From Escherichia coli (GTDB taxonomy: Bacteria; Pseudomonadota; Gammaproteobacteria; Enterobacterales; Enterobacteriaceae), in the NCBI RefSeq assembly GCF_013122565.1, contig NZ_CP053258.1: a DNA stretch of 64,000 nt; one strand, written 5' to 3'. The notes beneath the pieces were generated by a model. It saw only the letters and a list, made by a program, of their open reading frames with translations. It made no database searches and was not told the DNA's origin. Positions 42,249 to 64,000 of the stretch are shown here, piece by piece. Both the position numbers and the translations under genes were made by a program. Positions within the stretch are counted from its first letter, which is position 1. Every line of letters begins with the position of its first letter.

Positions 42249-42306
42249 TTTTGCCTCGATTTCTTTTCTATTACCGCCTACCTTAACGATTCAGCAACCC
42301 CGCTTA

Positions 42307-42320
42307 TTGATGTAAATCAA
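42307..42320. promoter_or_regulatory. FNR binding site of the nirB promoter
   Basis: ttgatgtaaatcaa = TTGAT-N4-ATCAA FNR consensus, centred about 40 bp upstream of a TAAGGT-like -10 (plus-strand accTTA at 42281-42286). Confidence 0.6.
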
Positions 42321-42334
42321 ATTCACCTTTATAT

Positions 42335-42350
42335 ACTCCTTAAGGGGTAT
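42335..42350. promoter_or_regulatory. Candidate NarL/NarP heptamer pair in the nirB upstream region
   Basis: Palindromic tactccttaaggggta (TACYYMT-type inverted heptamers) upstream of the FNR site. Confidence 0.45.
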
Positions 42351-42509
42351 ATTGCTGATTTGTATAAATTTTCTTAAGTCACGGAATTGTCTGACATTTC
42401 ATGTTTGTGCAAAAAATAGACAAAATGAACGGGTTTACAGAAATAGATGCACGTAGCGGGGTAAGAGAGGAAAAGGCCGGACGACGATAGTGCCGTCCGG
42501 CATGAGCAA

Positions 42510-43691
42510 TTAATGAGAGGTCAGGGTGTTATGCTGACGGTGACGGCTGACGAAACCTAACAGGAAGCACATCACAAAGACGACAGCGTACAGACCGTTT
42601 GCTGTAAGCAGCGCCGCCTGCGGACCGCTATGTTCAACAATCGGGCCGGTAACCACAAAGGTCAACATAGTACCGATGGTCCCGCAGGTCAGGACAAAGT
42701 TAACCAGTTTTGGCGACGGTACTTTGGTCTGCTGTGAACCCAGGGTGATGATGGTGGTATAGATCGCGCTGGAGAAGAAGCCCAGGGCGAGAATTGACCA
42801 CGCCATATGTGCCGGTGTTCCGGTGTTAAAGACGTACATCAGAATCGCAGCCAGACCAGCCAGTACGGTCAGAATGCGCTGCAAATCAAAGAAGCGAAGA
42901 ATAAAGCTGAACGCCCACATGCCGACCATGTATGACATCCAGAAGTTACTCACCAGCGTGCCCGCGTCGTTCAGGCTCATGCCCAGGCCTTTGGCATACT
43001 CAGGCACCCAGGAGATAAAACCTAACTGACCGAGGATGTAGCACAGCGCCGCAACAGAGAGAAACAGTACGCCGATCCCCCACTTTTCTTTCTCTACCGG
43101 AGCATCCGTTTTTGGCGCATGTTTGCCCAGCGCCGGGAACTCACACCCGAAGGTCAGAATAAAAATAGCGACATACACCAGCCCGATGCAGGCATAAACC
43201 CAGTACCACTCAATGCTGCGCGCCAGTAGAAACGCGGCGATCATTGGGAAAATCATCCCAGCCATACTGAAGAAGGAGTCGGTAAATAACAGGCGGGAAC
43301 CGCGCTGACGCCCTTCATACATTTGTGTTACCAGGAATGTACCAATCGACATGGTGATGCCGCTGACCACCCCGAGAATGAACATCGCCGCCGAGAACAG
43401 CGCCAGGCTGTGGCTGAACATCAAACCGGCAACCGCCAGCACCATCAGGAGAAAGCCAAAACGTAACTGCGTTTTCAACGGGACGATTTCCATCAGCCAG
43501 GCGTTGAGGAAGATAGAGATTAAAATGCCGGCGTTGAGGAAGGTGAAGGTATTACTCATACTGGAAACAGGCAGATTGAAATAATCGGCGATATTTCCCA
43601 TCACCATCCCGGTGACAATAACCAACGCACCGGTCAGTGCGTAGGAGAGAAAGCTAATCCATGTGAGCTTGATGCGATTGCTGTTAGTCAT
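42510..43691 (-). CDS. tsgA: MFS-type membrane protein TsgA
   Basis: ORF-track 393 aa, 12-TM-like hydrophobic profile. Confidence 0.85.
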
Positions 43692-43814
43692 GATTGGCCT
43701 GCGTTCAAAAATAAAATGGCATAGCGGGATATGCCGCGAGCGGGCGATTTTAGGCGATTTTGTGATCTGATTAAATGTTTTATTGCAATCGGTTGCTAAA
43801 TTGCATTTTAAGAG

Positions 43815-43828
43815 GTGATTTTGATCAC
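43815..43828. promoter_or_regulatory. Candidate CRP site in the tsgA/ppiA divergent region
   Basis: gtgattttgatcac matches the TGTGA-N6-TCACA core. Confidence 0.4.
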
Positions 43829-43952
43829 GGAATAAAAAGTGATCGTCAGGTTACATATATTTCAGATACGTAAAATTAGGTAAAGGGATGGCCTTGTTCT
43901 TGAAGGCTATTTAGAATCTCTTCACTTGCTTTTTTTCTGCTCTGTTTGTTAA

Positions 43953-44534
<582 letters not shown>

Positions 44535-44542
44535 TGATTTCT

Positions 44543-44565
44543 CGCGCGGGCAATCTTGCCCGCGC
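44543..44565 (+). terminator. Candidate terminator hairpin after ppiA
   Basis: Perfect 10-bp stem gcgcgggcaa/ttgcccgcgc with a short loop; weak T-tract follows. Confidence 0.35.
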
Positions 44566-44638
44566 TTCTGCTCTCCCGGCGTAACCCGGATTTGCCGCTT
44601 ATACTTGTGGCAAATGGACACGTTCAGGGAGGCATCAA

Positions 44639-44806
44639 GTGAAGAAACTCACCGATAAGCAAAAGTCCCGTCTCTGGGAGCTTCAGCGTAATCGTAATTT
44701 CCAGGCCAGTCGCCGTCTTGAAGGCGTCGAGATGCCTTTAGTCACTCTTACTGCCGCAGAGGCTTTAGCGCGCCTTGAAGCGCTGAGGAGGCACTATGAG
44801 CGATAA
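44639..44806 (+). CDS. yhfG: Small protein YhfG (55 aa, GTG start), Fic-associated
   Basis: Manual translation from GTG 44639 gives [55 protein letters not shown]; stop overlaps the fic start by 11 bp; absent from the ORF track (<60 aa, non-ATG). Confidence 0.6.
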
Positions 44807-45398
44807 ATTCGGCGAAGGGCGCGATCCGTATCTTTATCCAGGCCTTGATATCATGCGTAACCGGCTGAACATCCGTCAGCAGCAGCGGCTGGAACAGGCC
44901 GCTTACGAAATGACGGCGCTGCGTGCTGCGACCATTGAGCTTGGTCCGCTGGTGCGCGGTTTACCGCATTTGCGCACTATCCATCGCCAGCTGTATCAGG
45001 ATATTTTCGACTGGGCAGGGCAACTGCGTGAAGTCGATATTTATCAGGGCGATACGCCGTTCTGCCACTTTGCTTATATCGAAAAAGAGGGCAATGCCCT
45101 GATGCAGGATCTGGAGGAAGAAGGTTATCTGGTTGGCCTGGAGAAAACGAAGTTCGTCGAGCGGCTGGCGCATTACTATTGTGAAATCAACGTGCTGCAT
45201 CCCTTCCGGGTGGGAAGTGGTCTGGCACAGCGGATCTTCTTCGAGCAACTGGCGATTCATGCCGGATATCAACTGAGCTGGCAGGGTATCGAAAAAGAGG
45301 CCTGGAATCAGGCAAATCAGAGTGGGGCAATGGGGGATCTCACCGCGTTGCAGATGATATTTAGCAAAGTGGTAAGCGAAGCCGGGGAATCTGAGTAA
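44796..45398 (+). CDS. fic: Fic-domain protein (filamentation induced by cAMP)
   Basis: ORF-track 200 aa; Fic motif present in the variant form [12 protein letters not shown]. Confidence 0.9.
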
Positions 45399-45429
45399 AA
45401 TAGCGCGGTTCTTTCGTACCGGAGCCGCC

Positions 45430-45993
45430 ATGATCCTGCTTATAGATAACTACGATTCTTTTACCTGGAACCTCTACCAGTACTTTTGTGAACTGGGGGC
45501 GGATGTGCTGGTTAAGCGCAACGATGCGTTGACGCTGGCGGATATCGACGCCCTTAAACCACAAAAAATTGTCATCTCACCTGGCCCCTGTACGCCAGAT
45601 GAAGCCGGGATCTCCCTTGACGTTATTCGCCACTATGCCGGGCGCTTGCCGATTCTTGGCGTCTGCCTCGGTCATCAGGCAATGGCGCAGGCATTTGGCG
45701 GTAAAGTTGTGCGCGCCGCAAAGGTCATGCACGGCAAAACCTCGCCGATAACACATAGCGGTGAGGGCGTATTTCGGGGGCTGGCAAATCCACTTACTGT
45801 GACACGCTATCATTCGCTGGTGGTGGAACCTGACTCATTACCTGCGTGCTTTGACGTGACGGCCTGGAGCGAAACCCGCGAGATTATGGGGATTCGCCAT
45901 CGCCAGTGGGATCTGGAAGGTGTGCAGTTCCATCCAGAAAGTATTCTTAGCGAACAAGGACATCAACTGCTGGCTAATTTCCTGCATCGCTGA
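45430..45993 (+). CDS. pabA: Aminodeoxychorismate synthase glutamine-amidotransferase subunit
   Basis: ORF-track 187 aa; class I GATase catalytic Cys (GVCLGHQ) and His. Confidence 0.92.
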
Positions 45994-46063
45994 TTTCTGA
46001 TTGCCATTCAGTGATTTTTTATGCATATTTTGTGATTATAATTTCACATTTATTTATGCGTAA

Positions 46064-47299
<1,236 letters not shown>

Positions 47300-47321
47300 A
47301 TACGAAGCATCAGGCAAAAGA

Positions 47322-47352
47322 TGTCGGATGCGGCGTGAATGCCTTATCCGAT
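47322..47352. repeat. REP element
   Basis: tgtcggatgcggcgtgaatgccttatccgat matches the REP consensus core; between argD and yhfK. Confidence 0.5.
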
Positions 47353-47365
47353 GGTTTAGCCTGCA

Positions 47366-49468
47366 TTACGCCTTCGAATCCCGCAACTTGCGACTCAGCC
47401 AAATCCCGTGATGCGGTCGCTGACGCCATGCCATCGACGAAATGGTGTGCATGGTGTTCAGATGACCAATAACCCGCTGTAAATGCTGCTCCAGCGTACC
47501 TGCCGCGCCTTCGTGCGGCTGCATCTCCGGCGCATCCATGATATTGGCATCGCCAGAACTCCCCGGTTCGTCATACTCCAGTCGCTGCTGACAACGCTGA
47601 ATGGCGATTTCACAAGACTGCAAATATTCTTGCGCCAGTTCAGGCGGCAATGCCCGGTGTTCCCGTGCCAGCGTGGTCATGGCATTAATATGTTCAACAA
47701 TAAACTGACTGTGCGTTACCCACAGTTTCATATCTGCCAGATAATGGCTGTTGAATGCCGGTTCCTGCATCGCTTGATTCAATGAGTTATACAGAGTGTT
47801 ATGCGCCTGATTTACCCGCATTCGCTGCCAGGCCAGTGGGGTAGGTTGCGGGTCCTCGCTCAGAATCAAGCGAATCGCTTCCTGATAGGCTTCTAAAGCA
47901 TCATGGGCGTTTTTACGCAATAACCCGCTCTGCCACTGCGGCCACAGCCAGACGGTACCACCGAAAGCAATCAAACAACCAATAATGGTATCGATAAGAC
48001 GTGGAAGGATGTACTGCTCACCGTTCAGCCACAACAGTTGCAGGGTATACACTGCGGTAATAGTAAAACCGACCGTCGCCCAGCCGTAGTTTTTGCGCAA
48101 TATCAGGTAGCTGGCGAGGGTGGTAATCAGCATCAAGGTCAGGGTGTAACCTTCGGGAATTTTAAAGTGCAGCGCCACGCCCGCAATGATTAACCCAACC
48201 ACGGTTCCCACGGAGCGATTCACAATCCTCAGACGGGTTGCGCCATAGCCATTTTGCGTCACCAGCAATACCGTCATCAGGATCCAGTACGACTTCGGCA
48301 GATGCAGCGCGGTACCCATCAGGCTGGCAACGCTTAACATCACACTGAGTCGTCCGGCATTGCGTAGCGCCGGAGACTTTAGTGACAGATAACTTTTCAG
48401 CGCCGGAAGTAACGGCATTCGCCGCTGTTTATCGGCCAGTAAGTCACGGGCATAGAGCGGTTTTTGGGTGCGCAGCACGCGGGCAATGCGGCTGAAATGC
48501 CAGTAGCAGAATTGCCCAACCGGATTATCCGGATGCTGGCGGGCGATTTTTTCCAGTGCGCCAATTTGCTTTTCCATCGTAAAACGCGTCGGCAGGCGAT
48601 GGTAAAGAATGTCATCAGCCAGCACGCGCAGGCGAGCGGCGACGGTTTGCGCATTCCAGCGGATAACTTCTTCCGCATGGCTACGCTCGACCAGTTTTTG
48701 CACCTCTTCCGGCTGATGCAAACTGACCGAAATATGTTCCTGCAAATCCAGCGCCTCCTGGAAAATACGCAGCATCCGCTTGTAGTCAGTATTATTTTGC
48801 GCGGAAAGCATATGCATTTGCTGATAGCACTGGGTAATTAGATCGACCGCTTTTTGCTGGCGCACCAGCAGCGGCGGCAGCGCTTTTTCAGGGTCGGTGT
48901 GCTGGGTAAGCAGGCTGTATTTGGCTTCACAATAATCTGCCAGTTCACGGTATAGCAGACTTAGTGACTCGCGCAGCGGTTGTTCGCGCCAGATCCAGAA
49001 CCAAAACCAGTTAAACAATCCGTACCAGAGAGTGCCCAACGCATAGATGAGCAACGGTTCCCAGACCGGCATGTATCCCGCCAGACTGAGGGTAAAAATG
49101 GCGGCGAGCAGCGATGCGGGAAGCAATTTAGCGTGCAATGGCCCCAGCTCAGCAGTGACGCCAAGTACCAGCGTTAATCCGGTCAGCAAAAAGGGCAGGG
49201 GAACATCTTTTGCCAGTAGTAGCTGTGTCAGCAAGCTACAGGTGGCAAACAGCGACGCACCAATGATTAAGCGTTTGAAAAAACGTTTATGAGGCGTATC
49301 AAGGCCCGCAATATTGCAACAGGCAGGAACGAGGGAGAAGAGCAGACCGAATCGTAATTCGCCAAGCATTAACCCAACGGCCACGGGCAAACATAGCACC
49401 AGCGTTTGTCGCAGTGCATAGTTGATATCGGGGTGATAAATCAGTCTGCGCCACATCGGGGGAAACAA
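47366..49468 (-). CDS. yhfK: Inner-membrane protein YhfK (FUSC/AaeB-like)
   Basis: ORF-track 700 aa, two hydrophobic blocks separated by a soluble domain. Confidence 0.85.
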   Translation of the reverse strand: MFPPMWRRLIYHPDINYALRQTLVLCLPVAVGLMLGELRFGLLFSLVPACCNIAGLDTPHKRFFKRLIIGASLFATCSLLTQLLLAKDVPLPFLLTGLTLVLGVTAELGPLHAKLLPASLLAAIFTLSLAGYMPVWEPLLIYALGTLWYGLFNWFWFWIWREQPLRESLSLLYRELADYCEAKYSLLTQHTDPEKALPPLLVRQQKAVDLITQCYQQMHMLSAQNNTDYKRMLRIFQEALDLQEHISVSLHQPEEVQKLVERSHAEEVIRWNAQTVAARLRVLADDILYHRLPTRFTMEKQIGALEKIARQHPDNPVGQFCYWHFSRIARVLRTQKPLYARDLLADKQRRMPLLPALKSYLSLKSPALRNAGRLSVMLSVASLMGTALHLPKSYWILMTVLLVTQNGYGATRLRIVNRSVGTVVGLIIAGVALHFKIPEGYTLTLMLITTLASYLILRKNYGWATVGFTITAVYTLQLLWLNGEQYILPRLIDTIIGCLIAFGGTVWLWPQWQSGLLRKNAHDALEAYQEAIRLILSEDPQPTPLAWQRMRVNQAHNTLYNSLNQAMQEPAFNSHYLADMKLWVTHSQFIVEHINAMTTLAREHRALPPELAQEYLQSCEIAIQRCQQRLEYDEPGSSGDANIMDAPEMQPHEGAAGTLEQHLQRVIGHLNTMHTISSMAWRQRPHHGIWLSRKLRDSKA

Positions 49469-49506
49469 AATGGCGCGCTACTCAGTAACGCGCCACTCCG
49501 ACGGGA

Positions 49507-50139
49507 TTAACGAGTGCCGTAAACGACGATGGTTTTACCGTGTGCGGAGATCAGGTTCTGATCTTCCAGCATCTTCAGAATGCGTCCCACGGTTTCACGA
49601 GAACAGCCGACAATCTGACCAATTTCCTGACGGGTAATTTTGATTTGCATACCGTCCGGGTGAGTCATAGCGTCTGGTTGTTTTGCCAGGTTCAGCAGAG
49701 TCTGTGCAATACGGCCCGTCACGTCGAGGAACGCCAGGTTGCCCACTTTCTCTGAAGTGACTTGCAGACGACGCGCCATCTGTGCAGACAGACGCATCAG
49801 AATGTCCGGATTTACCTGAATCAATTGGCGAAATTTTTTGTACGAAATTTCAGCCACTTCACAGGCGGTTTTCGCACGTACCCATGCGCTACGTTCCTGG
49901 CCCTCTTCAAACAGGCCCAGTTCGCCAATAAAATCACCCTGATTCAGATAGGAGAGGATCATTTCTTTACCCTCCTCGTCTTTGATCAGCACTGCCACAG
50001 AGCCTTTAACGATGTAGTACAGCGTTTCCGCTTTTTCACCCTGGTGAATAAGCGTGCTCTTGGATGGGTACTTATGAATGTGGCAATGAGACAAGAACCA
50101 TTCGAGAGTCGGGTCTGTTTGCGGTTTGCCAAGCACCAT
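49507..50139 (-). CDS. crp: cAMP receptor protein
   Basis: ORF-track 210 aa beginning [48 protein letters not shown]; C-terminal [14 protein letters not shown]. Confidence 0.97.
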
Positions 50140-50440
50140 GCGCGGTTATCCTCTGTTATAAGCTTTCTCCAGAGCCAGATAACGCCGCTGTCTCTGGATT
50201 GCCGAAATATGCTTCCCGCTACCTGGGAAGGGGCTATCAACTGTACTGCACGGTAATGTGACGTCCTTTGCATACATGCAGTACATCAATGTATTACTGT
50301 AGCATCCTGACTGTTTTAGCATAGCTTTCGCTTTGTGTCTCCTGGTGTCTCGCTTCAGCATGACCCAGGTCGCCTTCCGTTGCGCGATTTGGTTAGTACG
50401 CGTACTCTGTCAGGAAAATTGACGCAGTGGAGTAGCAAAA

Positions 50441-50845
50441 ATGCAAGCGCGAGTGAAGTGGGTCGAAGGGTTAACTTTTTTGGGCGAATCCGCCTCTGGT
50501 CACCAGATTTTAATGGACGGCAACTCAGGCGATAAAGCACCAAGTCCGATGGAAATGGTGTTGATGGCGGCGGGTGGTTGCAGTGCCATCGATGTGGTTT
50601 CGATCCTGCAAAAAGGGCGTCAGGATGTGGTCGATTGTGAAGTAAAATTGACCTCTGAACGCCGCGAAGAGGCACCACGCCTGTTTACGCACATTAATCT
50701 GCATTTTATCGTCACCGGTCGCGACCTGAAAGACGCAGCGGTTGCGCGTGCGGTTGATCTCTCTGCTGAGAAATATTGTTCAGTGGCGTTGATGCTGGAA
50801 AAAGCGGTGAATATTACTCACTCGTATGAAGTGGTTGCCGCGTGA
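50441..50845 (+). CDS. yhfA: OsmC-family protein YhfA
   Basis: ORF-track 134 aa; divergent from crp. Confidence 0.85.
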   Translation: MQARVKWVEGLTFLGESASGHQILMDGNSGDKAPSPMEMVLMAAGGCSAIDVVSILQKGRQDVVDCEVKLTSERREEAPRLFTHINLHFIVTGRDLKDAAVARAVDLSAEKYCSVALMLEKAVNITHSYEVVAA

Positions 50846-50899
50846 TTTAACTATCCCGTTGTGAAGCCGGATAGTATTTTATCCGGCGTAATAGCAGAG

Positions 50900-51769
50900 T
50901 TACTCGATTTTCTTTCCTTCCATCAATCGTTGCACCAGCGGCAGCATAATTAATTCCATTGCCAGACCCATTTTGCCGCCGGGCACCACTAACGTATTGA
51001 TGTGGGAAATGAATGAGCCTTGCAACATCGCCAGCAGCCAGGGGAAATCGATCCCTTCCAGATTACGAAAATGGATCACCACAAAGCTTTCATCCAGCGA
51101 CGGGATACCTTTTGCCGCGAACGGGTTTGAAGTGTCGACGGTGGGAACGCGCTGGAAGTTAAGATGGGTGCGGGAAAACTGCGGTGTGATGTAGTTGATA
51201 TAGTCTTCCATTGAACGCACTACTGAGTCCATCACTGCTTCTCGTGAGTGCCCGCGCTCGCTGGTGTCGCGGATCAGTTTTTGAATCCACTCAAGGTTAA
51301 CGATAGGCACCACGCCGACCAGTAAGTCCACATGCTGCGCAACGTTATGCTGTGGCGTGACTACACCGCCGTGTAAACCTTCATAAAACAGTACATCAGT
51401 GGGTTCCGGTAAAGGTTGCCAGGGGGTGAATGTTCCCGGTACCTGATTCCAGGGTACGGCTTCGTCGTAGGTATGCAGATATTTGCGAGATTTCCCTTTG
51501 CCGCTCTGACCGTATTCAATGAAGGTTTGTTCCAGCAGGCCGAAGTCGTTCGCTTCGGGGCCGAAGTAGCTGATATGCCGCCCGGCGTCACGCGCTTTAC
51601 GGATCGCCATGTCCATTTCCGGGCGGGTGTAACGGTGAAAACTGTCGCCTTCCACCTCAGCTGCATGCAGATTTAACTGCGCGAATATTTTACGAAACGC
51701 GAGGCTGGTGGTGGTGGTCCCCGCGCCGCTGGATCCTGTTACCGCAATGACCGGATGTTTGGCAGACAT
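50900..51769 (-). CDS. prkB: Phosphoribulokinase homologue
   Basis: ORF-track 289 aa; P-loop GSSGAGTTT. Confidence 0.9.
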   Translation of the reverse strand: MSAKHPVIAVTGSSGAGTTTTSLAFRKIFAQLNLHAAEVEGDSFHRYTRPEMDMAIRKARDAGRHISYFGPEANDFGLLEQTFIEYGQSGKGKSRKYLHTYDEAVPWNQVPGTFTPWQPLPEPTDVLFYEGLHGGVVTPQHNVAQHVDLLVGVVPIVNLEWIQKLIRDTSERGHSREAVMDSVVRSMEDYINYITPQFSRTHLNFQRVPTVDTSNPFAAKGIPSLDESFVVIHFRNLEGIDFPWLLAMLQGSFISHINTLVVPGGKMGLAMELIMLPLVQRLMEGKKIE

Positions 51770-51822
51770 AGTAACTCCATGACTTAGCTATCATTATTAT
51801 CTCGTCCGCCGACGGTTGCAGG

Positions 51823-52041
51823 CTATTCGCGAAACTGACTGCGCGGCATGATATTGACCGTTTCGTGCAGCTCCGACCATACCAGCACCGCTTCTCCGCA
51901 CTGTAGCTGGCGTTTGACGTCGGCGACTTTCTGTTCAAGTGTACGCTCATGTTCACCATAATCGGTGCCTTCACGTAACACAAAGCTTTCAATTAAATTT
52001 TCCAGCGTTTCGGGGGAGAGGTCTTGCCACGGAATCAACAT
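51823..52041 (-). CDS. yheU: YheU (UPF0270 family, 72 aa)
   Basis: ORF-track 72 aa; start overlaps the yheT stop by 7 bp. Confidence 0.8.
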
Positions 52042-53057
52042 GATTTCGCCTCCAGATACGTTGTTAACCAGTCAGGAATGCGTGACTCCAGCCACATTTG
52101 CGGATGAAGTAATGTACCGCCAATAAAGCCAACATGACCGCCATGTTCAGTCAGTTGATACTCCACCTGCGGGGGGAGACTTTCCGGTTTCGGGATCACC
52201 TGATGATCCATAAACGGATCGTCTTTGGCGTGAATAATCAGCGTCGGTTTGGCGATCCGGTTCAGCATCGGCATGGCGCTACACTGACGATAATAGTCGA
52301 TAGCGTCAGCGTAGCCGTGAATTCTGGCGGTGATGAGATCGTCAAATTCACGGATGCGACGTACCGATTTTAACTGCGCGAGATTAATCGGCAGTGTTCC
52401 GGGGTAGGCTGCCAGCTTGCGCGCGGCATTGGCTTTTAACAGGTTCAGCAAGTAACGCTGATAAACGCGGGAAAAGCCCTTTTCCATATGATAGCTACAG
52501 GCTTCCAGCATAAACGGCGCAGAGACAATCACCGCCGCATCAACAGGGAGATCATTGCCTTCTTTTGCCAGCAAACAGGCCAGCATATTACCGCCGAGCG
52601 AATAGCCGACGGCAGCCGTTGGCGCATGACCAAATTCGCGTTGCAGCCAGCGTAAAAACCAACTGGCGTCTTCGGTTTCGCCCGAATGGTAAATGCGGTG
52701 CATACGGTTTGGTTCACCGCTGCATCCGCGAAAATGCATCACCACGCCCAGCCAGCCGCGCTTTTGCGCCGCCTCAACCAGACCGTGGGCGTAAGGGCTA
52801 TTGAGACTGCCTTCGAGACCGTGAAACACCACTAAACGCGGTTTATGTTTCGCCTGTGCGGGGTTTTCACTCCACGCGAGATCGACAAAATCGCCGTCGG
52901 GCAACTCCAGCCGCTGCCAGTGCGGGGTGAATTTCACCTGGCGACGAAACAGACGCGGCAGCATGGTTTGTAGATGACAATTGCTAAAGCCGCGCATGGG
53001 GGTGAATTCAGCACTGCTGCTGAATTCATTGGCATCGGTCGTCGTTATCTGCGCCAT
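52035..53057 (-). CDS. yheT: Alpha/beta-hydrolase YheT
   Basis: ORF-track 340 aa; nucleophile elbow GYSLGGN; start abuts the yheS stop. Confidence 0.85.
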
Positions 53058-54970
53058 CAGTTGCTTTGGCCTTCCAGCAGCATCTGCTCAAGCTGCTCCT
53101 GGGCTTCCAGCCACGCCATTTCACACTCTTCCAGGCCGGATTTGGCGCTGGCTTGCTGTTGCAGGCAGGCGGTCAGCTCCGCTTTACGGCTTTGATCGTA
53201 CAGTTCGCTGTCGCCGAGTTTCTCTTCCGCCTGCGCCAGCTGTGCGTTCAGCTTTTCCATCTCTTTTTCCAGACGGGCGATCTCTTTACGCAGCGGTTGG
53301 GTTTGCGCACGCAGCTCCGCTTCCCGACGCTTCTGATCTTTACGTGCCTGGGCGCTGTTTGCGTTCTCTTTTGGCGCTTCGTCGGTCTGGTTTTCTTGCT
53401 TTTGTACGTCGCTCAACCACTGTTGATAATCTTCCAGATCGCCGTCGAACGGTTCGACTTTACGATCGTGAACCAGGTAGAGGTCGTCAGTGGTGGAACG
53501 CAGCAAATGACGGTCGTGCGAAACGACAACCAGCGCGCCTTCAAACTCGATTAATGCTTCGGTGAGTGCCTGACGCATGTCGAGGTCAAGGTGGTTAGTC
53601 GGTTCGTCGAGCAGCAGCAGATTCGGCCGCTGCCAGACAATTAATGCCAGCACCAGGCGGGCTTTTTCCCCACCTGAGAAGCGGCGCGTTTCTTCGGTTA
53701 CTTTATCGCCCTGGAAACCAAAGCCGCCGAGGTAGTCACGCAGTTTTTGCTCCAGTTCCTGCGGCGCTAAACGTGCCAGATGTTGAATAGGCGATTCGTC
53801 GGCGCGCAGGTATTCAAGTTGATGCTGGGCGAAGTAGCCGAGCTTGATCCCTTTTGCCAGGCCTATTTCACCACTGACTGGCGCAAGTTCACCGGCTAAC
53901 AGTTTGATTAATGTCGATTTACCCGCGCCGTTGCGGCCTAACAGACCAATGCGCGAACCGGGGACCAGATTCAGTTTAATCGAGTCGAGAACAATGCGAT
54001 CGCCATAGCCTGCGCTGACCTTTTCCATCTTCAGTAACGGATTTGGCAGACTTTCCGGCGCGCGGAAGCTAAAGCGGAACGGGTTGTCGACGTGCGCGGG
54101 GGCAATCAGCTCCATACGCTCGAGCATCTTAATGCGGCTCTGGGCCTGCTTCGCTTTGGTGGCTTTGGCACGGAAACGGTCGATATAACTTTGCAGATGC
54201 GCTACGCGTTCCTGCTGGCTTTCGTACATCGCTTGTTGCTGCGCCAGACGGGTGGCGCGCTGTACTTCAAACGAACTGTAGTTGCCGGTGTACTCGAACA
54301 TGCTTTGTTGTTCGATATGAATAATTTTATCGACGATCGGATCGAGGAAGTCGCGGTCGTGAGAGATCAGGATCAGCGTGCCCTGATAGCTCTTCAGCCA
54401 TTTTTCCAGCCAGATAACGGCATCGAGATCGAGGTGGTTAGTCGGTTCGTCGAGCAGCAGCAAGTCTGAACGGCAAATCAGCGCCTGGGCAAGGTTAAGA
54501 CGCATACGCCAGCCACCAGAGAAATCACTTACCGGGCGCTCCAGTTGTTCATTGCTGAAACCGAGGCCGTGCAGCAGGCTGGCGGCACGGGAGCGAATAC
54601 TCCATGCGTCAATAGCATCCAGCTTGCCATGAATGGTCGCAATGGCGTGCCCGTCGTTACGTTCGTTGGCGTCGTGTAGCTGCGCTTCCAGTTGACGATA
54701 TTCACGGTCGCCGTCAATGACATATTCCAGCGCCGCTTGCGGTAACGCCGGCGTTTCCTGATTCACCCACGCCAGTTGCCAGCTTCCCGGAAAGGTGTAG
54801 CTGCCGCCGTCGGCGCTGATTTCATTTTTCAGCAATGCCAGCAGGGTAGATTTACCACAGCCGTTTTTACCCACCAGGCCGACTTTCTGCCCGGGGTTGA
54901 TGGTGGCGGTGGCATTATCCAGCAGGACGCGCACGCCGCGACGAATTTGTAACGAGGAGAAAACAATCAT
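53057..54970 (-). CDS. yheS: ABC-F family ATPase YheS (two ABC domains, no TM domain)
   Basis: ORF-track 637 aa; two Walker A motifs (GKNGCGKST, GRNGAGKST), two signature motifs, C-terminal coiled-coil. Confidence 0.9.
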   Translation of the reverse strand: MIVFSSLQIRRGVRVLLDNATATINPGQKVGLVGKNGCGKSTLLALLKNEISADGGSYTFPGSWQLAWVNQETPALPQAALEYVIDGDREYRQLEAQLHDANERNDGHAIATIHGKLDAIDAWSIRSRAASLLHGLGFSNEQLERPVSDFSGGWRMRLNLAQALICRSDLLLLDEPTNHLDLDAVIWLEKWLKSYQGTLILISHDRDFLDPIVDKIIHIEQQSMFEYTGNYSSFEVQRATRLAQQQAMYESQQERVAHLQSYIDRFRAKATKAKQAQSRIKMLERMELIAPAHVDNPFRFSFRAPESLPNPLLKMEKVSAGYGDRIVLDSIKLNLVPGSRIGLLGRNGAGKSTLIKLLAGELAPVSGEIGLAKGIKLGYFAQHQLEYLRADESPIQHLARLAPQELEQKLRDYLGGFGFQGDKVTEETRRFSGGEKARLVLALIVWQRPNLLLLDEPTNHLDLDMRQALTEALIEFEGALVVVSHDRHLLRSTTDDLYLVHDRKVEPFDGDLEDYQQWLSDVQKQENQTDEAPKENANSAQARKDQKRREAELRAQTQPLRKEIARLEKEMEKLNAQLAQAEEKLGDSELYDQSRKAELTACLQQQASAKSGLEECEMAWLEAQEQLEQMLLEGQSN

Positions 54971-55097
54971 AAGGCGCCGTATGTTCAGACTATGTTAACT
55001 TATCATTATGATAATGTAATGTATGGGCGAGCTGCCGCACCGGGCGCAATGGTAGCCCAAAACAGCGACTATACACAAAAACCATACCGGGAGGGGG

Positions 55098-55652
55098 ATG
55101 ATGTCTCAGCCAGCGAAAGTTTTGCTGCTGTATGCCCATCCGGAATCTCAGGACTCGGTGGCAAACCGGGTACTGCTTAAACCGGCCACGCAGCTCAGCA
55201 ATGTTACCGTGCACGACCTTTACGCGCACTATCCCGATTTTTTTATTGATATCCCCCGTGAGCAGGCATTACTGCGCGAGCACGAGGTGATTGTCTTTCA
55301 GCATCCTCTTTATACCTATAGCTGCCCGGCGCTACTGAAAGAGTGGCTGGACAGGGTATTAAGCCGTGGTTTTGCCAGCGGGCCGGGAGGAAACCAACTG
55401 GCGGGAAAGTACTGGCGTAGCGTGATTACCACCGGCGAGCCGGAAAGTGCTTACCGTTATGACGCGTTGAATCGCTACCCGATGAGCGATGTCCTGCGCC
55501 CCTTTGAACTGGCGGCGGGCATGTGCCGGATGCATTGGTTAAGTCCCATCATTATTTACTGGGCGAGACGGCAAAGCGCACAGGAGCTGGCGAGCCACGC
55601 CAGAGCCTACGGTGACTGGCTGGCAAATCCGCTGTCTCCAGGAGGCCGCTGA
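55098..55652 (+). CDS. kefG: KefB ancillary protein (flavodoxin-like quinone oxidoreductase fold)
   Basis: ORF-track 184 aa; stop overlaps the kefB start. Confidence 0.85.
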
Positions 55653-57457
55653 TGGAAGGTTCCGATTTTTTACTCGCAGGAGTGTTGTTTCTCTTCGCGG
55701 CGGTGGCTGCGGTGCCGCTGGCATCGCGGCTGGGTATTGGCGCTGTGTTGGGATATTTGCTGGCAGGGATTGCAATTGGCCCGTGGGGGCTGGGGTTTAT
55801 TAGCGACGTCGATGAGATCCTCCACTTTTCGGAACTCGGCGTGGTGTTCCTGATGTTTATCATCGGCCTTGAGTTGAATCCCTCCAAGCTTTGGCAACTG
55901 CGGCGTTCGATTTTTGGCGTAGGCGCGGCACAGGTGCTGTTAAGCGCGGCGTTGCTGGCGGGATTATTGATGCTGACGGATTTCGCCTGGCAGGCGGCGG
56001 TGGTCGGTGGCATTGGCCTTGCGATGTCTTCGACCGCAATGGCGTTGCAACTGATGCGTGAGAAAGGGATGAATCGTAGCGAATCCGGGCAGCTCGGGTT
56101 TTCGGTTCTGCTGTTTCAGGATCTGGCAGTGATCCCGGCACTGGCGTTAGTGCCGTTGTTGGCGGGGTCGGCAGACGAACATTTTGACTGGATGAAGATC
56201 GGCATGAAGGTGCTGGCGTTTGTTGGCATGCTGATTGGCGGGCGCTATTTACTGCGTCCGGTATTCCGTTTTATTGCAGCTTCTGGCGTGAGGGAAGTGT
56301 TCACCGCCGCGACGTTACTGCTGGTGTTGGGTTCCGCATTGTTTATGGATGCGCTTGGGCTGTCGATGGCGCTCGGTACGTTTATTGCGGGCGTGCTGCT
56401 GGCGGAAAGTGAATATCGCCATGAACTGGAAACGGCTATCGATCCCTTCAAAGGCTTGCTGCTCGGTTTGTTCTTTATCTCTGTCGGCATGTCACTCAAT
56501 CTCGGGGTGCTTTATACCCATCTGTTGTGGGTAGTGATAAGCGTGGTTGTGCTGGTGACGGTGAAAATTCTCGTGCTATATCTGCTGGCGCGATTATATG
56601 GCGTGCGTAGCTCAGAGCGGATGCAGTTTGCTGGCGTGTTGAGTCAGGGCGGCGAGTTTGCCTTTGTCCTCTTTTCTACTGCTTCTTCGCAACGGTTGTT
56701 TCAGGGCGACCAGATGGCGCTGTTGTTGGTGACGGTAACGCTTTCTATGATGACCACGCCACTGCTGATGAAGCTGGTGGATAAATGGCTATCCCGCCAG
56801 TTTAACGGACCAGAAGAAGAAGACGAAAAACCGTGGGTCAACGATGATAAACCGCAGGTCATTGTCGTGGGCTTCGGGCGTTTTGGGCAGGTGATTGGTC
56901 GTTTGCTGATGGCAAATAAAATGCGCATTACTGTGCTGGAGCGGGATATCAGCGCCGTTAACCTGATGCGTAAATATGGCTACAAAGTTTATTACGGTGA
57001 TGCCACGCAAGTCGATCTGTTGCGCTCTGCAGGTGCCGAGGCCGCAGAATCTATCGTGATCACCTGTAACGAACCGGAAGACACCATGAAGCTGGTGGAA
57101 ATATGCCAGCAGCACTTTCCGCATTTGCATATTCTTGCGCGAGCGCGCGGACGTGTGGAAGCGCATGAGTTATTACAGGCAGGGGTGACGCAGTTTTCCC
57201 GTGAAACATTCTCCAGTGCGTTAGAGCTGGGGCGCAAGACGCTGGTCACGCTTGGCATGCATCCGCATCAGGCACAGCGGGCGCAACTGCATTTTCGCCG
57301 CCTGGATATGCGGATGCTGCGAGAGCTCATCCCAATGCATACCGATACCGTACAAATTTCTCGCGCCAGGGAAGCCCGACGCGAACTGGAAGAGATTTTC
57401 CAGCGTGAAATGCAACAAGAACGACGCCAGCTTGACGGCTGGGATGAATTTGAGTAG
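55652..57457 (+). CDS. kefB: Glutathione-regulated K+ efflux system protein KefB
   Basis: ORF-track 601 aa; N-terminal CPA2 transporter domain plus C-terminal KTN/RCK domain ([11 protein letters not shown]). Confidence 0.92.
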
Positions 57458-57466
57458 AGGGTAAAG

Positions 57467-57667
57467 ATGGCAATCCGAAAACGTTTTATTGCGGGCGCAA
57501 AATGCCCGGCCTGTCAGGCGCAGGATTCAATGGCGATGTGGCGCGAAAATAATATTGATATTGTTGAATGTGTTAAGTGTGGACATCAGATGCGAGAAGC
57601 AGACAAAGAAGCCCGCGATCACGTTCGCAAAGATGAGCAAGTGATCGGGATTTTTCATCCGGACTAG
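57467..57667 (+). CDS. yheV: Small zinc-ribbon-like protein YheV
   Basis: ORF-track 66 aa with CPAC...CVKCGH cysteine pairs. Confidence 0.75.
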   Translation: MAIRKRFIAGAKCPACQAQDSMAMWRENNIDIVECVKCGHQMREADKEARDHVRKDEQVIGIFHPD

Positions 57668-57761
57668 CGATATGCGCCGAGTTTTTTTAAGCTAGTGAGT
57701 ACACGGCTGCAGAATTCCGCTACAATCTGCGCCACTATTCTTCCCATGCTCAGGAGATATC

Positions 57762-58352
57762 ATGAAAGTAGCAAAAGACCTGGTGGTCAGCCTGGCCTAT
57801 CAGGTACGTACAGAAGACGGTGTGTTGGTTGATGAGTCTCCGGTGAGTGCGCCGCTGGACTACCTGCATGGTCACGGTTCCCTGATCTCTGGCCTGGAAA
57901 CGGCGCTGGAAGGTCATGAAGTTGGCGACAAATTTGATGTCGCTGTTGGCGCGAACGACGCTTACGGTCAGTACGACGAAAACCTGGTGCAACGTGTGCC
58001 TAAAGACGTATTTATGGGCGTTGATGAACTGCAGGTAGGTATGCGTTTCCTGGCTGAAACCGACCAGGGTCCGGTACCGGTTGAAATCACTGCGGTTGAA
58101 GACGATCACGTCGTGGTTGATGGTAACCACATGCTGGCCGGTCAGAACCTGAAATTCAACGTTGAAGTTGTGGCGATTCGCGAAGCGACTGAAGAAGAGC
58201 TGGCTCATGGCCACGTTCACGGTGCGCACGATCATCACCACGATCACGACCACGACGGTTGCTGCGGCGGTCATGGCCACGATCACGGCCATGAACACGG
58301 TGGCGAAGGCTGCTGTGGCGGTAAAGGCAACGGCGGTTGCGGTTGCCACTAA
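57762..58352 (+). CDS. slyD: FKBP-type peptidyl-prolyl isomerase/metallochaperone SlyD
   Basis: ORF-track 196 aa beginning MKVAKDLVVSLAYQVRTEDGVLVDESP; His/Cys/Asp-rich C-terminal tail. Confidence 0.95.
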   Translation: MKVAKDLVVSLAYQVRTEDGVLVDESPVSAPLDYLHGHGSLISGLETALEGHEVGDKFDVAVGANDAYGQYDENLVQRVPKDVFMGVDELQVGMRFLAETDQGPVPVEITAVEDDHVVVDGNHMLAGQNLKFNVEVVAIREATEEELAHGHVHGAHDHHHDHDHDGCCGGHGHDHGHEHGGEGCCGGKGNGGCGCH

Positions 58353-58365
58353 TACCGAAAAAGTG

Positions 58366-58396
58366 ACAAAAAAGCGGGGAATCCCCGCTTTTTTTA
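58366..58396. terminator. Bidirectional intrinsic terminator between slyD and slyX
   Basis: aaaaaa-gcgggg-aat-ccccgc-ttttttt: GC hairpin with A-run and T-run on either side. Confidence 0.75.
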
Positions 58397-58400
58397 CGCC

Positions 58401-58619
58401 TCAATAATGTGGCGGTGGCGTTTCTTCAGCCTGCGACGCAATGTTCGACGGCTGGCTGGCTTTTAACTTCTCGGTCAGCAGACGCAGATGATCGCGCAGT
58501 TTCGCCATCTCCATTTCATGAGCGGTCACCGTGACGTTCAGTTCTTCAATGGTGATTTCCTGAAAAGCCAGTCGGCTCTCCAGCTCTGCCAGGCGTGCTT
58601 CCAATGATAAATCCTGCAT
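58401..58619 (-). CDS. slyX: SlyX (coiled-coil small protein)
   Basis: ORF-track 72 aa; convergent with slyD. Confidence 0.85.
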
Positions 58620-58839
58620 GATTCACCTCTTTTGTCGAATGGTCGCCGCGGATTCTACTTAACTTTGCTGCCCGAGACAGCACTCATTTCGCGGTCATCG
58701 AAACTAATTTAAACAAAAAGAGTCTGAAAATAGATGATAATAGGGCGTGTCTGTATGTAGATTTGTTCGACAACGCTTTATAGTACCCTTCTGATAATAG
58801 TTAACCCTGGGGTGAGATGCCCCGATCCTGGAGATATGG

Positions 58840-59652
58840 ATGAAATCACTGTTTAAAGTAACGCTGCTGGCGACCACAATGGCCGTTGCCCTGCATGCAC
58901 CGATCACTTTTGCTGCTGAAGCTGCAAAACCTGCTACAACTGCTGACAGCAAAGCAGCGTTCAAAAATGACGATCAGAAATCAGCTTATGCACTGGGTGC
59001 TTCGCTGGGTCGTTACATGGAAAACTCTCTTAAAGAACAAGAAAAACTGGGCATCAAACTGGATAAAGATCAGCTGATCGCTGGTGTTCAGGATGCATTT
59101 GCTGATAAGAGCAAACTCTCCGACCAAGAGATCGAACAGACACTGCAAGCATTCGAAGCTCGCGTGAAGTCTTCTGCTCAGGCGAAGATGGAAAAAGACG
59201 CGGCAGATAACGAAGCGAAAGGTAAAGAGTACCGCGAGAAATTTGCCAAAGAGAAAGGTGTGAAAACCTCTTCAACTGGTCTGGTTTATCAGGTAGTCGA
59301 AGCCGGTAAAGGCGAAGCACCGAAAGACAGCGATACTGTTGTCGTGAACTACAAAGGTACGCTGATCGACGGTAAAGAGTTCGACAACTCTTACACCCGT
59401 GGTGAACCGCTCTCTTTCCGTCTGGACGGTGTTATCCCGGGGTGGACAGAAGGTCTGAAGAACATCAAGAAAGGCGGTAAGATCAAACTGGTTATTCCAC
59501 CAGAACTGGCTTACGGCAAAGCGGGTGTTCCGGGGATCCCACCGAATTCTACCCTGGTGTTTGACGTAGAGCTGCTGGATGTGAAACCAGCGCCGAAGGC
59601 TGATGCAAAGCCGGAAGCTGATGCGAAAGCCGCAGATTCTGCTAAAAAATAA
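58840..59652 (+). CDS. fkpA: Periplasmic FKBP-type peptidyl-prolyl isomerase FkpA
   Basis: ORF-track 270 aa; signal peptide, dimerisation helix, FKBP domain (VVVNYKGTLIDGKEFD). Confidence 0.95.
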   Translation: MKSLFKVTLLATTMAVALHAPITFAAEAAKPATTADSKAAFKNDDQKSAYALGASLGRYMENSLKEQEKLGIKLDKDQLIAGVQDAFADKSKLSDQEIEQTLQAFEARVKSSAQAKMEKDAADNEAKGKEYREKFAKEKGVKTSSTGLVYQVVEAGKGEAPKDSDTVVVNYKGTLIDGKEFDNSYTRGEPLSFRLDGVIPGWTEGLKNIKKGGKIKLVIPPELAYGKAGVPGIPPNSTLVFDVELLDVKPAPKADAKPEADAKAADSAKK

Positions 59653-59660
59653 GCATTAAG

Positions 59661-59691
59661 AACCGCCGCCTGACCAGGCGGCGGTTTTTTT
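59661..59691 (+). terminator. Intrinsic terminator of fkpA
   Basis: ccgccgcc...ggcggcgg hairpin followed by a 7-T run, 10 bp after the fkpA stop. Confidence 0.8.
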
Positions 59692-59818
59692 ATTACAGGC
59701 CGGATATAATTAGTGCTGGAAAGCGGAACCTCCGCTGTATTAATTTAGTTACCCGCATCATTAATGAGCCTGCCCTGAAAAGTTAACGACAGGCTCCTGA
59801 AAAGGAGTGTTTTTTTTC

Positions 59819-60926
<1,108 letters not shown>

Positions 60927-60927
<1 letters not shown>

Positions 60928-61286
60928 TGAAACGAATTGCGTTTGTTTTTTCTACTGTGCCTCATGGTACCGCTGCCGGGCGGGAAGGTTTAGATGCTTT
61001 ACTGGCAACTTCCGCGTTAACTGACGAGCTGGCCGTCTTCTTTATTGCTGATGGCGTTTTTCAGCTACTGCCAGGACAAAAGCCCGGTGCGGTGCTGGCG
61101 CGTGATTACATTGCCACTTTTAAATTGTTGGGTCTGTACGACATTGAACAGTGCTGGGTTTGTGCGGCTTCACTGCGCGAACGTGGGTTAGATCCGCAGA
61201 CACCCTTTGTTGTCGAAGCCACGCCGCTCGAAGCAGATGCCTTACGCCGCGAACTTGGCAACTACGATGTAATTTTGAGGTTTTGA
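60927..61286 (+). CDS. tusC: TusC
   Basis: ORF-track 119 aa; start overlaps the tusD stop. Confidence 0.9.
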
Positions 61287-61293
61287 GGCGTTT

Positions 61294-61581
61294 ATGCTGC
61301 ACACATTACATCGCTCACCCTGGCTGACGGATTTTGCTGCGCTGCTGCGTCTGCTCAGTGAAGGCGACGAACTGCTATTATTGCAAGATGGCGTAACTGC
61401 CGTAGTTGACGGTAACCGCTACCTTGAAAGTCTGCGTAATGCCCCCATTAAGGTCTATGCCCTGAACGAAGACCTTATTGCCCGCGGTTTGACTGGTCAA
61501 ATTTCGAACGACATCATTCCAATTGACTATACTGATTTCGTCAGACTTACGGTTAAGCACTCCAGCCAGATGGCCTGGTGA
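61294..61581 (+). CDS. tusB: TusB
   Basis: ORF-track 95 aa; third gene of the tusDCB unit. Confidence 0.9.
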
Positions 61582-61603
61582 TGGCGGGATCGTTGTATAT
61601 TTC

Positions 61604-62081
<478 letters not shown>

Positions 62082-62162
62082 TGGTTCTCCGTTAAGTAAG
62101 GCCAAACGTTTTAACTTAAATGTCAAACTAAACTCGTAGAGTTTTGGACAATCCTGAATTAA

Positions 62163-62648
<486 letters not shown>

Positions 62649-62732
62649 TCCCTTCGGAGTTTTAGTCACCAGGCGGGCGCTTCCAGTAAGCAGCCCGCTT
62701 TGGGCTACTTAAATTGAACGCCTAAAAGATAA

Positions 62733-64000
<1,268 letters not shown>

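Follow-up and report, generated by a model that had tools for sequence, protein, structure and literature searches.

The His/Cys-rich metal-binding tail of SlyD in an Escherichia coli genome: coordinates, two-module anatomy, in-frame length alleles, and two overlapping reading frames that are best not called genes

Toward the end of the 64,000-nucleotide stretch of Escherichia coli DNA analyzed here (referred to as the window), a gene closes with a highly repetitive run of codons, and the opposite strand carries a 199-aa open reading frame (ORF) across it. The locus thus raises the question of whether this run encodes a functional protein tail, is a nucleotide repeat that happens to be translated, or belongs to a second, overlapping gene. 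A first-pass annotation, made from the letters alone, had taken it for the metal-chelating extension of SlyD, a matter of known biology. We arrive at the same reading with a probability of about 0.97: positions 58206..58349 encode the known His/Cys-rich metal-binding tail of SlyD, with the function that published work has assigned to the identical protein, and nothing contradicting this reading was found in our analysis. The present analysis supplies the identity of the gene, its coordinates, the skewed composition, the internal repeat, the pattern of conservation and the finding that the antisense ORF is spurious, while metal binding, disorder and the roles in HypB interaction and hydrogenase maturation are taken from the literature. 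The tail is already known and is ordinary, textbook metallochaperone biology; what is added here consists of exact coordinates, a two-module reading of the tail, a set of rare in-frame length alleles in E. coli, and demonstrations that a tandem-repeat call and an antisense ORF are artefacts. The gene and its two parts are as follows.

57762..58352, + strand: slyD coding sequence, 196 codons and a TAA stop, assigned by identity to PDB 2KFW, the NF008008 model and RefSeq annotation.
57762..58205, + strand: folded body of SlyD, residues 1-148 (FKBP-type PPIase domain and inserted-in-flap (IF) chaperone domain), placed by Pfam and by constructs 8G01 and 2K8I.
58206..58349, + strand: C-terminal metal-binding tail, residues 149-196, with 15 His, 16 Gly, 6 Cys and 7 Asp/Glu in 48 residues.

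The assignment to slyD, already made by the first-pass annotation, is borne out by several matches. The 196-aa product of the listed ORF (57762..58352, +) is 100% identical, over all 196 residues and with the tail included, to PDB 2KFW, the NMR structure of full-length E. coli SlyD, for which the complete 196-aa protein was purified and its structure solved. Two truncated constructs were matched as well, namely 2K8I (residues 1-165) and 8G01 (residues 1-154, as present in the MraY-protein E-SlyD complex). The NCBIfam SlyD equivalog NF008008 (PRK10737) aligns to residues 1-196 along its 196 positions with 426.8 bits, against a cut-off of 174 bits. The Pfam FKBP_C match covers only residues 4-78 (profile positions 6-74 of 94), as is expected of an FKBP domain split by an insertion; together with the identity to 2KFW, 2K8I and 8G01, this split match places an IF chaperone domain within the FKBP-type PPIase domain, the architecture described for SlyD (PMC7055735). 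All 196 residues are also identical to those of E. coli K-12 SlyD (b3349), which has the same gene neighborhood.

In RefSeq, the region is annotated as slyD in 5,425 of 5,426 complete E. coli genomes; the remaining genome has no match to the region, and one of the matches sits on a record classed as a plasmid. ORFs and family matches in the window give the gene order kefB-yheV-slyD-slyX-fkpA, in agreement with the RefSeq annotation of 5,425 of the 5,426 complete genomes, so that the neighbors of slyD are KefB, the zinc-ribbon protein YheV, SlyX (convergent, on the minus strand) and FkpA. The same order is found at the Salmonella, Klebsiella, Serratia and Yersinia loci. Between the convergent slyD and slyX genes lies a perfect inverted repeat.

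58368..58394, no strand assigned: hairpin with 13-bp arms (inverted repeat I1, 100% complementary), flanked by A/T runs, between slyD and slyX.

A terminator scan calls this hairpin on the minus strand, and on the plus strand its stem is followed by TTTTTTT; it is therefore likely to serve as a bidirectional intrinsic terminator common to slyD and slyX. In E. coli STEC276 (locus L017), an IS4-like IS421 transposase gene is located between slyD and slyX, inserted at or adjoining this shared hairpin (at the equivalent of about position 58388 of the window), with both genes intact.

The boundaries of the tail needed a small correction. It had been placed at 58201-58349 and described as about 50 codons; the end is exact, but the start is 5 nt early, as position 58201 is the second position of codon 147 (Leu) and thus out of codon register, and the tail comprises 48 codons. 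The peptide string quoted at the time matches the last 48 residues of SlyD exactly. Against the background of amino-acid frequencies in the long ORFs of the window itself, the tail is strongly enriched in His (15 of 48 residues, binomial p = 3e-13), Gly (16 of 48, p = 2.4e-7) and Cys (6 of 48, p = 1.8e-5). Just seven codon types (CAC, CAT, GGC, GGT, TGC, GAT and GAC) supply 41 of its 48 codons, and its G+C content is 64%, compared with 56% for the slyD gene and 52% for the window. Residues 149-196 therefore form a His/Cys-rich tail of the gamma-/epsilon-proteobacterial type, identical to the tail that has been characterized. Four elements can be told apart within it.

58206..58229, + strand: conserved tail start, HGHVHGAH, including His149, His151 and His153.
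58227..58277, + strand: module 1 of a 17-codon internal repeat (direct repeat family D1), HDHHHDHDHDGCCGGHG, residues 156-172, with Cys167 and Cys168.
58278..58328, + strand: module 2 of the same repeat (family D1), HDHGHEHGGEGCCGGKG, residues 173-189, with Cys184 and Cys185.
58332..58349, + strand: conserved tail end, GGCGCH (Cys193, Cys195 and His196), present in orthologues and in all E. coli length alleles.

The tail may accordingly be described as an HGHVHG start, two 17-residue modules of the form H-x-H...GCCGG, and a GGCGCH end, with the two modules probably originating by internal duplication. They are identical at 37 of 51 nucleotides and 11 of 17 amino acids, a degree of identity that only 6 of 5000 codon-shuffled tails attained; in a sequence of such low complexity, the significance of the duplication (about 0.001 by codon shuffle) is modest.

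The first-pass annotation had proposed an alignment of orthologues to compare tail lengths, and we carried it out on 95 intact tails taken from the best homologues, all of which belong to Enterobacterales. The shortest tail has 25 aa, the longest 69, and the median length is 47; both ends are conserved and the middle is variable. HGHVHG starts 94 of the 95 tails and GCGC(x)H ends 88 of them, and on average the tails consist of 31% His, 32% Gly, 11% Cys and 16% Asp+Glu. One GCCGG module is present in 66 tails, two in 20, three in 2 and none in 7. By taxon, two modules are found in E. coli, Salmonella and Citrobacter, one in most Klebsiella, Serratia and Yersinia, none in Erwinia/Pantoea, and three in the tails of P0113 and P0114. 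Dickeya and Brenneria carry their own near-perfect, independent tandem copies of the GCCGG module. Taken together, the tail appears to evolve by duplication and loss of modules between two conserved ends. In the SlyD proteins of Salmonella, Citrobacter, Klebsiella, Serratia, Yersinia, Dickeya and Erwinia/Pantoea, the FKBP/IF body is 88-99% identical to that of the window, and the tails resemble the window's in that they open with HGHVHG, close with GGCGCH and have between these ends a stretch with much His, Gly, Cys and Asp.

Beyond the Enterobacterales, Thermus thermophilus SlyD (PDB 3CGM) and other tail-less homologues share the same FKBP and IF fold and a short C-terminal HGHxxH metal site but lack the extended His/Cys-rich tail. 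The nickel-chelating domain of SlyD has been described as typical of gamma- and epsilon-proteobacteria, and many phyla are without a His/Cys-rich SlyD tail domain altogether (PMC11198818). [quoted passage not shown] This likeness is functional: these segments have no demonstrable homology to the SlyD tail and sit on different carrier proteins. UreE and SlyD also differ in how far they depend on their tails: urease can mature without the UreE tail, but hydrogenase maturation requires that of SlyD (PMC7055735).

Published work on the identical protein agrees with the earlier description of the tail as a metal-chelating extension (PMC7055735; PMC12284835; PMC11198818). The tail is unstructured and offers heterogeneous sites for up to 7 Ni(II) per protein, with affinities in the sub-micromolar range; the bound nickel reversibly inhibits the PPIase activity; SlyD binds HypB, from which the tail stimulates nickel release; and the tail is essential for hydrogenase maturation (PMC7055735). 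A truncated form, SlyD155, retains only the His149/151/153 site, which holds one high-affinity Ni, and cannot activate [NiFe]-hydrogenase in vivo (PMC7055735). The disordered C-terminal tail has further been reported to take part in Ni transfer to HypB (PMC12284835). The name slyD itself derives from the requirement of the gene for lysis by phiX174 protein E, which relies on the chaperone function of SlyD (PMC11198818). Nickel is not the only metal that the tail binds, and some roles of SlyD are independent of nickel (PMC7055735; PMC11198818), so that the term "nickel tail" is a simplification. In the laboratory, the tail makes SlyD a contaminant of Ni/Co affinity (His-tag) purifications, for which it is a familiar nuisance, and removal of 46 C-terminal SlyD residues in the LOBSTR strain reduces binding to Ni resin (PMC13397214).

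From these reports and the residues present in the window, the tail would work as follows. His imidazoles and Cys thiolates would chelate several Ni(II), as well as other divalent metals, making the tail both a nickel reservoir and a nickel donor. The IF and PPIase domains would dock SlyD to the GTPase HypB at its N-terminal extension, and the tail would then promote the release and transfer of nickel within the HypB/HypA pathway that loads the large subunits of [NiFe]-hydrogenases, with tail-bound Ni reversibly inhibiting the PPIase.

The alternative to such an active role is that the tail is a passive metal sink or buffer, serving nickel storage or the detoxification of Ni, Zn, Co and Cu and taking no active part in transfer to HypB and hydrogenase. 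The capacity of up to 7 Ni(II) at heterogeneous sites, the binding of other metals, and the view that SlyD aids Ni storage (PMC7055735) would all suit a sink, as would the free variation of ligand number and tail length between species and within E. coli, which favors capacity over precision. We nevertheless consider a purely passive role unlikely, in view of the reported stimulation of HypB nickel release by the tail and the failure in vivo of SlyD155, which still has one high-affinity site (PMC7055735); a paper cited in that work carries the phrase "more than a Ni(II) reservoir" in its title. The strong conservation of the HGHVHG and GGCGCH ends likewise suggests specific sites in addition to bulk capacity.

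A separate question is whether the codon run is, at the DNA level, a nucleotide repeat in its own right. The part of the tail concerned is the following.

58227..58300, no strand assigned: repeats of His, Asp and Gly codons (period 12 in TRF, with short direct repeats at spacings of 12 and 39 nt) that hold the breakpoints of E. coli in-frame indel alleles.

TRF reports two period-12 arrays here, at 58227..58255 (score 44) and 58271..58300 (score 39). Among 1000 codon-shuffled tails, however, 21% gave a TRF score of at least 44 and 57% gave some match of at least 30. The arrays were therefore rejected as a true tandem repeat and are an effect of codon composition, arising by chance because the tail is built from so few codon types. 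The warning that the codon run could be misread as a nucleotide repeat thus holds for the TRF arrays, but with its 17-codon duplication and an in-frame length polymorphism within E. coli the run also acts as genuinely repetitive DNA.

This polymorphism is seen among complete E. coli genomes, in which in-frame slyD alleles of 183, 192 (two kinds), 196 and 201 aa occur (loci L001, L002 and L009-L015). The 201-aa allele is an exact 15-nt tandem duplication, CACCACGATCACGAC; the two distinct 192-aa alleles are different 12-nt deletions; and the 183-aa allele is a 39-nt deletion in which one whole GCCGG module is gone. Indel sizes of 12 and 39 nt equal the spacings of the direct repeats at 58227..58300, and each of the four indels is a multiple of 3 nt and leaves the GGCGCH end in place. 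With the tail as query, identity is between 90 and 95% in 42 of 5,425 complete genomes, presumably the carriers of indel alleles. Counted as index blocks, the 201-aa form has 139, the 192-aa forms 697 and 1,078, the 183-aa form 343, and the 196-aa form 97,568. Tail-length alleles other than 196 aa are rare in E. coli. Each 192-aa allele was found on more than one synonymous haplotype, which suggests either recurrence or recombination. The window's slyD has 6 synonymous changes relative to a K-12-like allele and 5 relative to that of O157, and all of these 5-6 differences from other E. coli alleles are at third positions. Because the alleles stay in-frame with GGCGCH and the substitutions are synonymous, the tail region is under coding constraint.

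These data bear on two further proposals. One holds that the region is mainly a micro- or minisatellite, with the His-rich peptide incidental or the true SlyD ending earlier. It could draw on the period-12 arrays and direct repeats, and on the 12-, 15- and 39-nt indels by which E. coli strains differ at these repeats; given how often shuffled codons score as high, the frame kept in every allele and species, tail ends that are nearly invariant across Enterobacterales, the synonymous nature of every substitution within E. coli, and a purified full-length protein whose tail has a demonstrated function (PMC7055735), we find it hardly credible. The other is that the His/Asp codon repeats form a mutational hot spot, at which in-frame slippage or short-repeat recombination would keep up a standing series of 183-201-aa alleles with one or two GCCGG modules. 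As the same 12-nt deletions lie on different synonymous haplotypes, which suggests recurrence, this is conceivable, if improbable. Were it true, the alleles might adapt the capacity for nickel storage, or hydrogenase maturation, to the niche, and gain and loss of modules would explain the range of 0-3 modules across Enterobacterales. Our literature search for within-species polymorphism or tandem-repeat behavior of the SlyD tail returned nothing relevant among the papers it covered, and an earlier report may still exist. Whatever their origin, the rare natural tail-length alleles offer ready-made variants for relating tail length and module number to nickel capacity.

With the plus strand read as the known SlyD tail, the opposite strand has to be accounted for.

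57750..58349, - strand: antisense 199-aa shadow ORF with a GTG start, not a gene, as judged by codon register with slyD, family searches and conservation.

This ORF is in exact codon register with slyD, so that stops are only possible opposite the sense codons TTA, CTA and TCA. As slyD contains none of these (13 of its 14 Leu codons are CTG), the antisense frame is open. The chance of this, calculated for 14 Leu and 5 Ser with the codon usage of the window, is about 0.10, and antisense open runs of at least 196 codons accompany 13 of the 38 long ORFs of the window, a list that itself includes some shadow ORFs. No Pfam or NCBIfam match was obtained for 57750..58349, and in RefSeq no gene is annotated there in the E. 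coli loci checked. In comparisons between species, sense identities of 0.99, 0.97, 0.91 and 0.88 stand against antisense identities of 0.81, 0.72, 0.63 and 0.62, with 0, 2 and 28; 0, 4 and 44; 7, 7 and 54; and 12, 9 and 57 substitutions at sense codon positions 1, 2 and 3 respectively. The antisense identity is low because substitutions fall on sense position 3, and no conservation was seen beyond that imposed by slyD. In Yersinia, the antisense frame meets a stop at codon 22. The entry, dismissed as spurious in the first-pass annotation, is on these grounds best read as a codon-usage shadow and not a gene.

If it were instead a real overlapping gene, it might be expressed by read-through from slyX, whose stop codon (TGA, 58403..58401) shares its frame and is separated from it by 17 stop-free codons; moreover, no stop interrupts the in-register antisense frame in the window, an E. 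coli variant, Salmonella, Klebsiella and Serratia. Yet a strong terminator hairpin separates slyX from the ORF, the common frame with slyX is lost in Salmonella and Serratia, and the open frame is explained by the codons of slyD and matched by similar runs opposite other ORFs; the missing family matches and annotation, the poor antisense conservation and the Yersinia stop also count against a gene. We thus regard this possibility as extremely remote. Read-through of the slyX stop into the antisense ORF was rejected on conservation, the intervening terminator and the unconserved frame relation, and the shared frame is most likely a coincidence. In annotation, neither the 199-aa antisense ORF nor the following 81-aa ORF should be called a gene.

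58162..58407, + strand: 81-aa ORF in the +1 frame across the tail, from the ORF list, not a gene; this frame is read by the frameshifted SlyD entries of about 214 aa.

Across the tail, four of the six frames contain no stop, which accounts for both this ORF and the many frameshifted SlyD entries. Entries that shift frame within the tail are P0010, P0012, P0014, P0046, P0072, P0074 and P0106, among which P0012, P0046, P0072 and P0106 read the +1 frame, end in a common C-terminal string and are about 214 aa long. Most of them come from single metagenome or Logan contigs, with one NCBI E. coli genome (P0012, 214 aa) among the sources. Errors of sequencing or assembly in the low-complexity run are their probable cause, and one or another may be a true tail-loss mutant. 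As candidates for frame-switching variation, nearly all the frameshifted entries stem from single contigs and may be errors; the alleles confirmed in complete genomes are all in-frame. For annotation, many "SlyD" entries of about 214 aa or longer are to be regarded as frameshift or chimera artefacts of the low-complexity stretch.

Positions 40000..64000 run collinear with E. coli for 24 kb without any net change in length. Among the 5,426 complete E. coli genomes, the highest identity is only 98.8% over these 24 kb, and 98.0% over the last 203 nt of slyD. The synonymous states at slyD positions 57998, 58199, 58223 and 58289 are not present in the 13 E. coli alleles compared; they were rejected as a slyD-specific signal, since the whole 24-kb flank is only 98.8% identical at best. 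The exact KefB protein of the window is recorded as E. coli on 12 contigs at NCBI, and this record, together with the flank identity, points to a sparsely sampled natural lineage of E. coli.

Three further database entries show unusual tails. P0061 (288 aa) and P0039 (272 aa), both from short ENA contigs, join an E. coli-like SlyD body (100% and 96% identity respectively) to a His-rich stretch and a C-terminal extension, which in P0061 matches Pfam PF07683, presumably the CobW C-terminal domain. Both have the appearance of chimeras made in assembly, with the CAC/CAT codon run as the bridge, and not of true fusions. In P0007, a SlyD entry from a Logan assembly, Tyr takes the place of most His residues along the first part of the tail (CAC to TAC, a C-to-T change), which suggests deaminated or bisulfite-type read data and not a natural variant.
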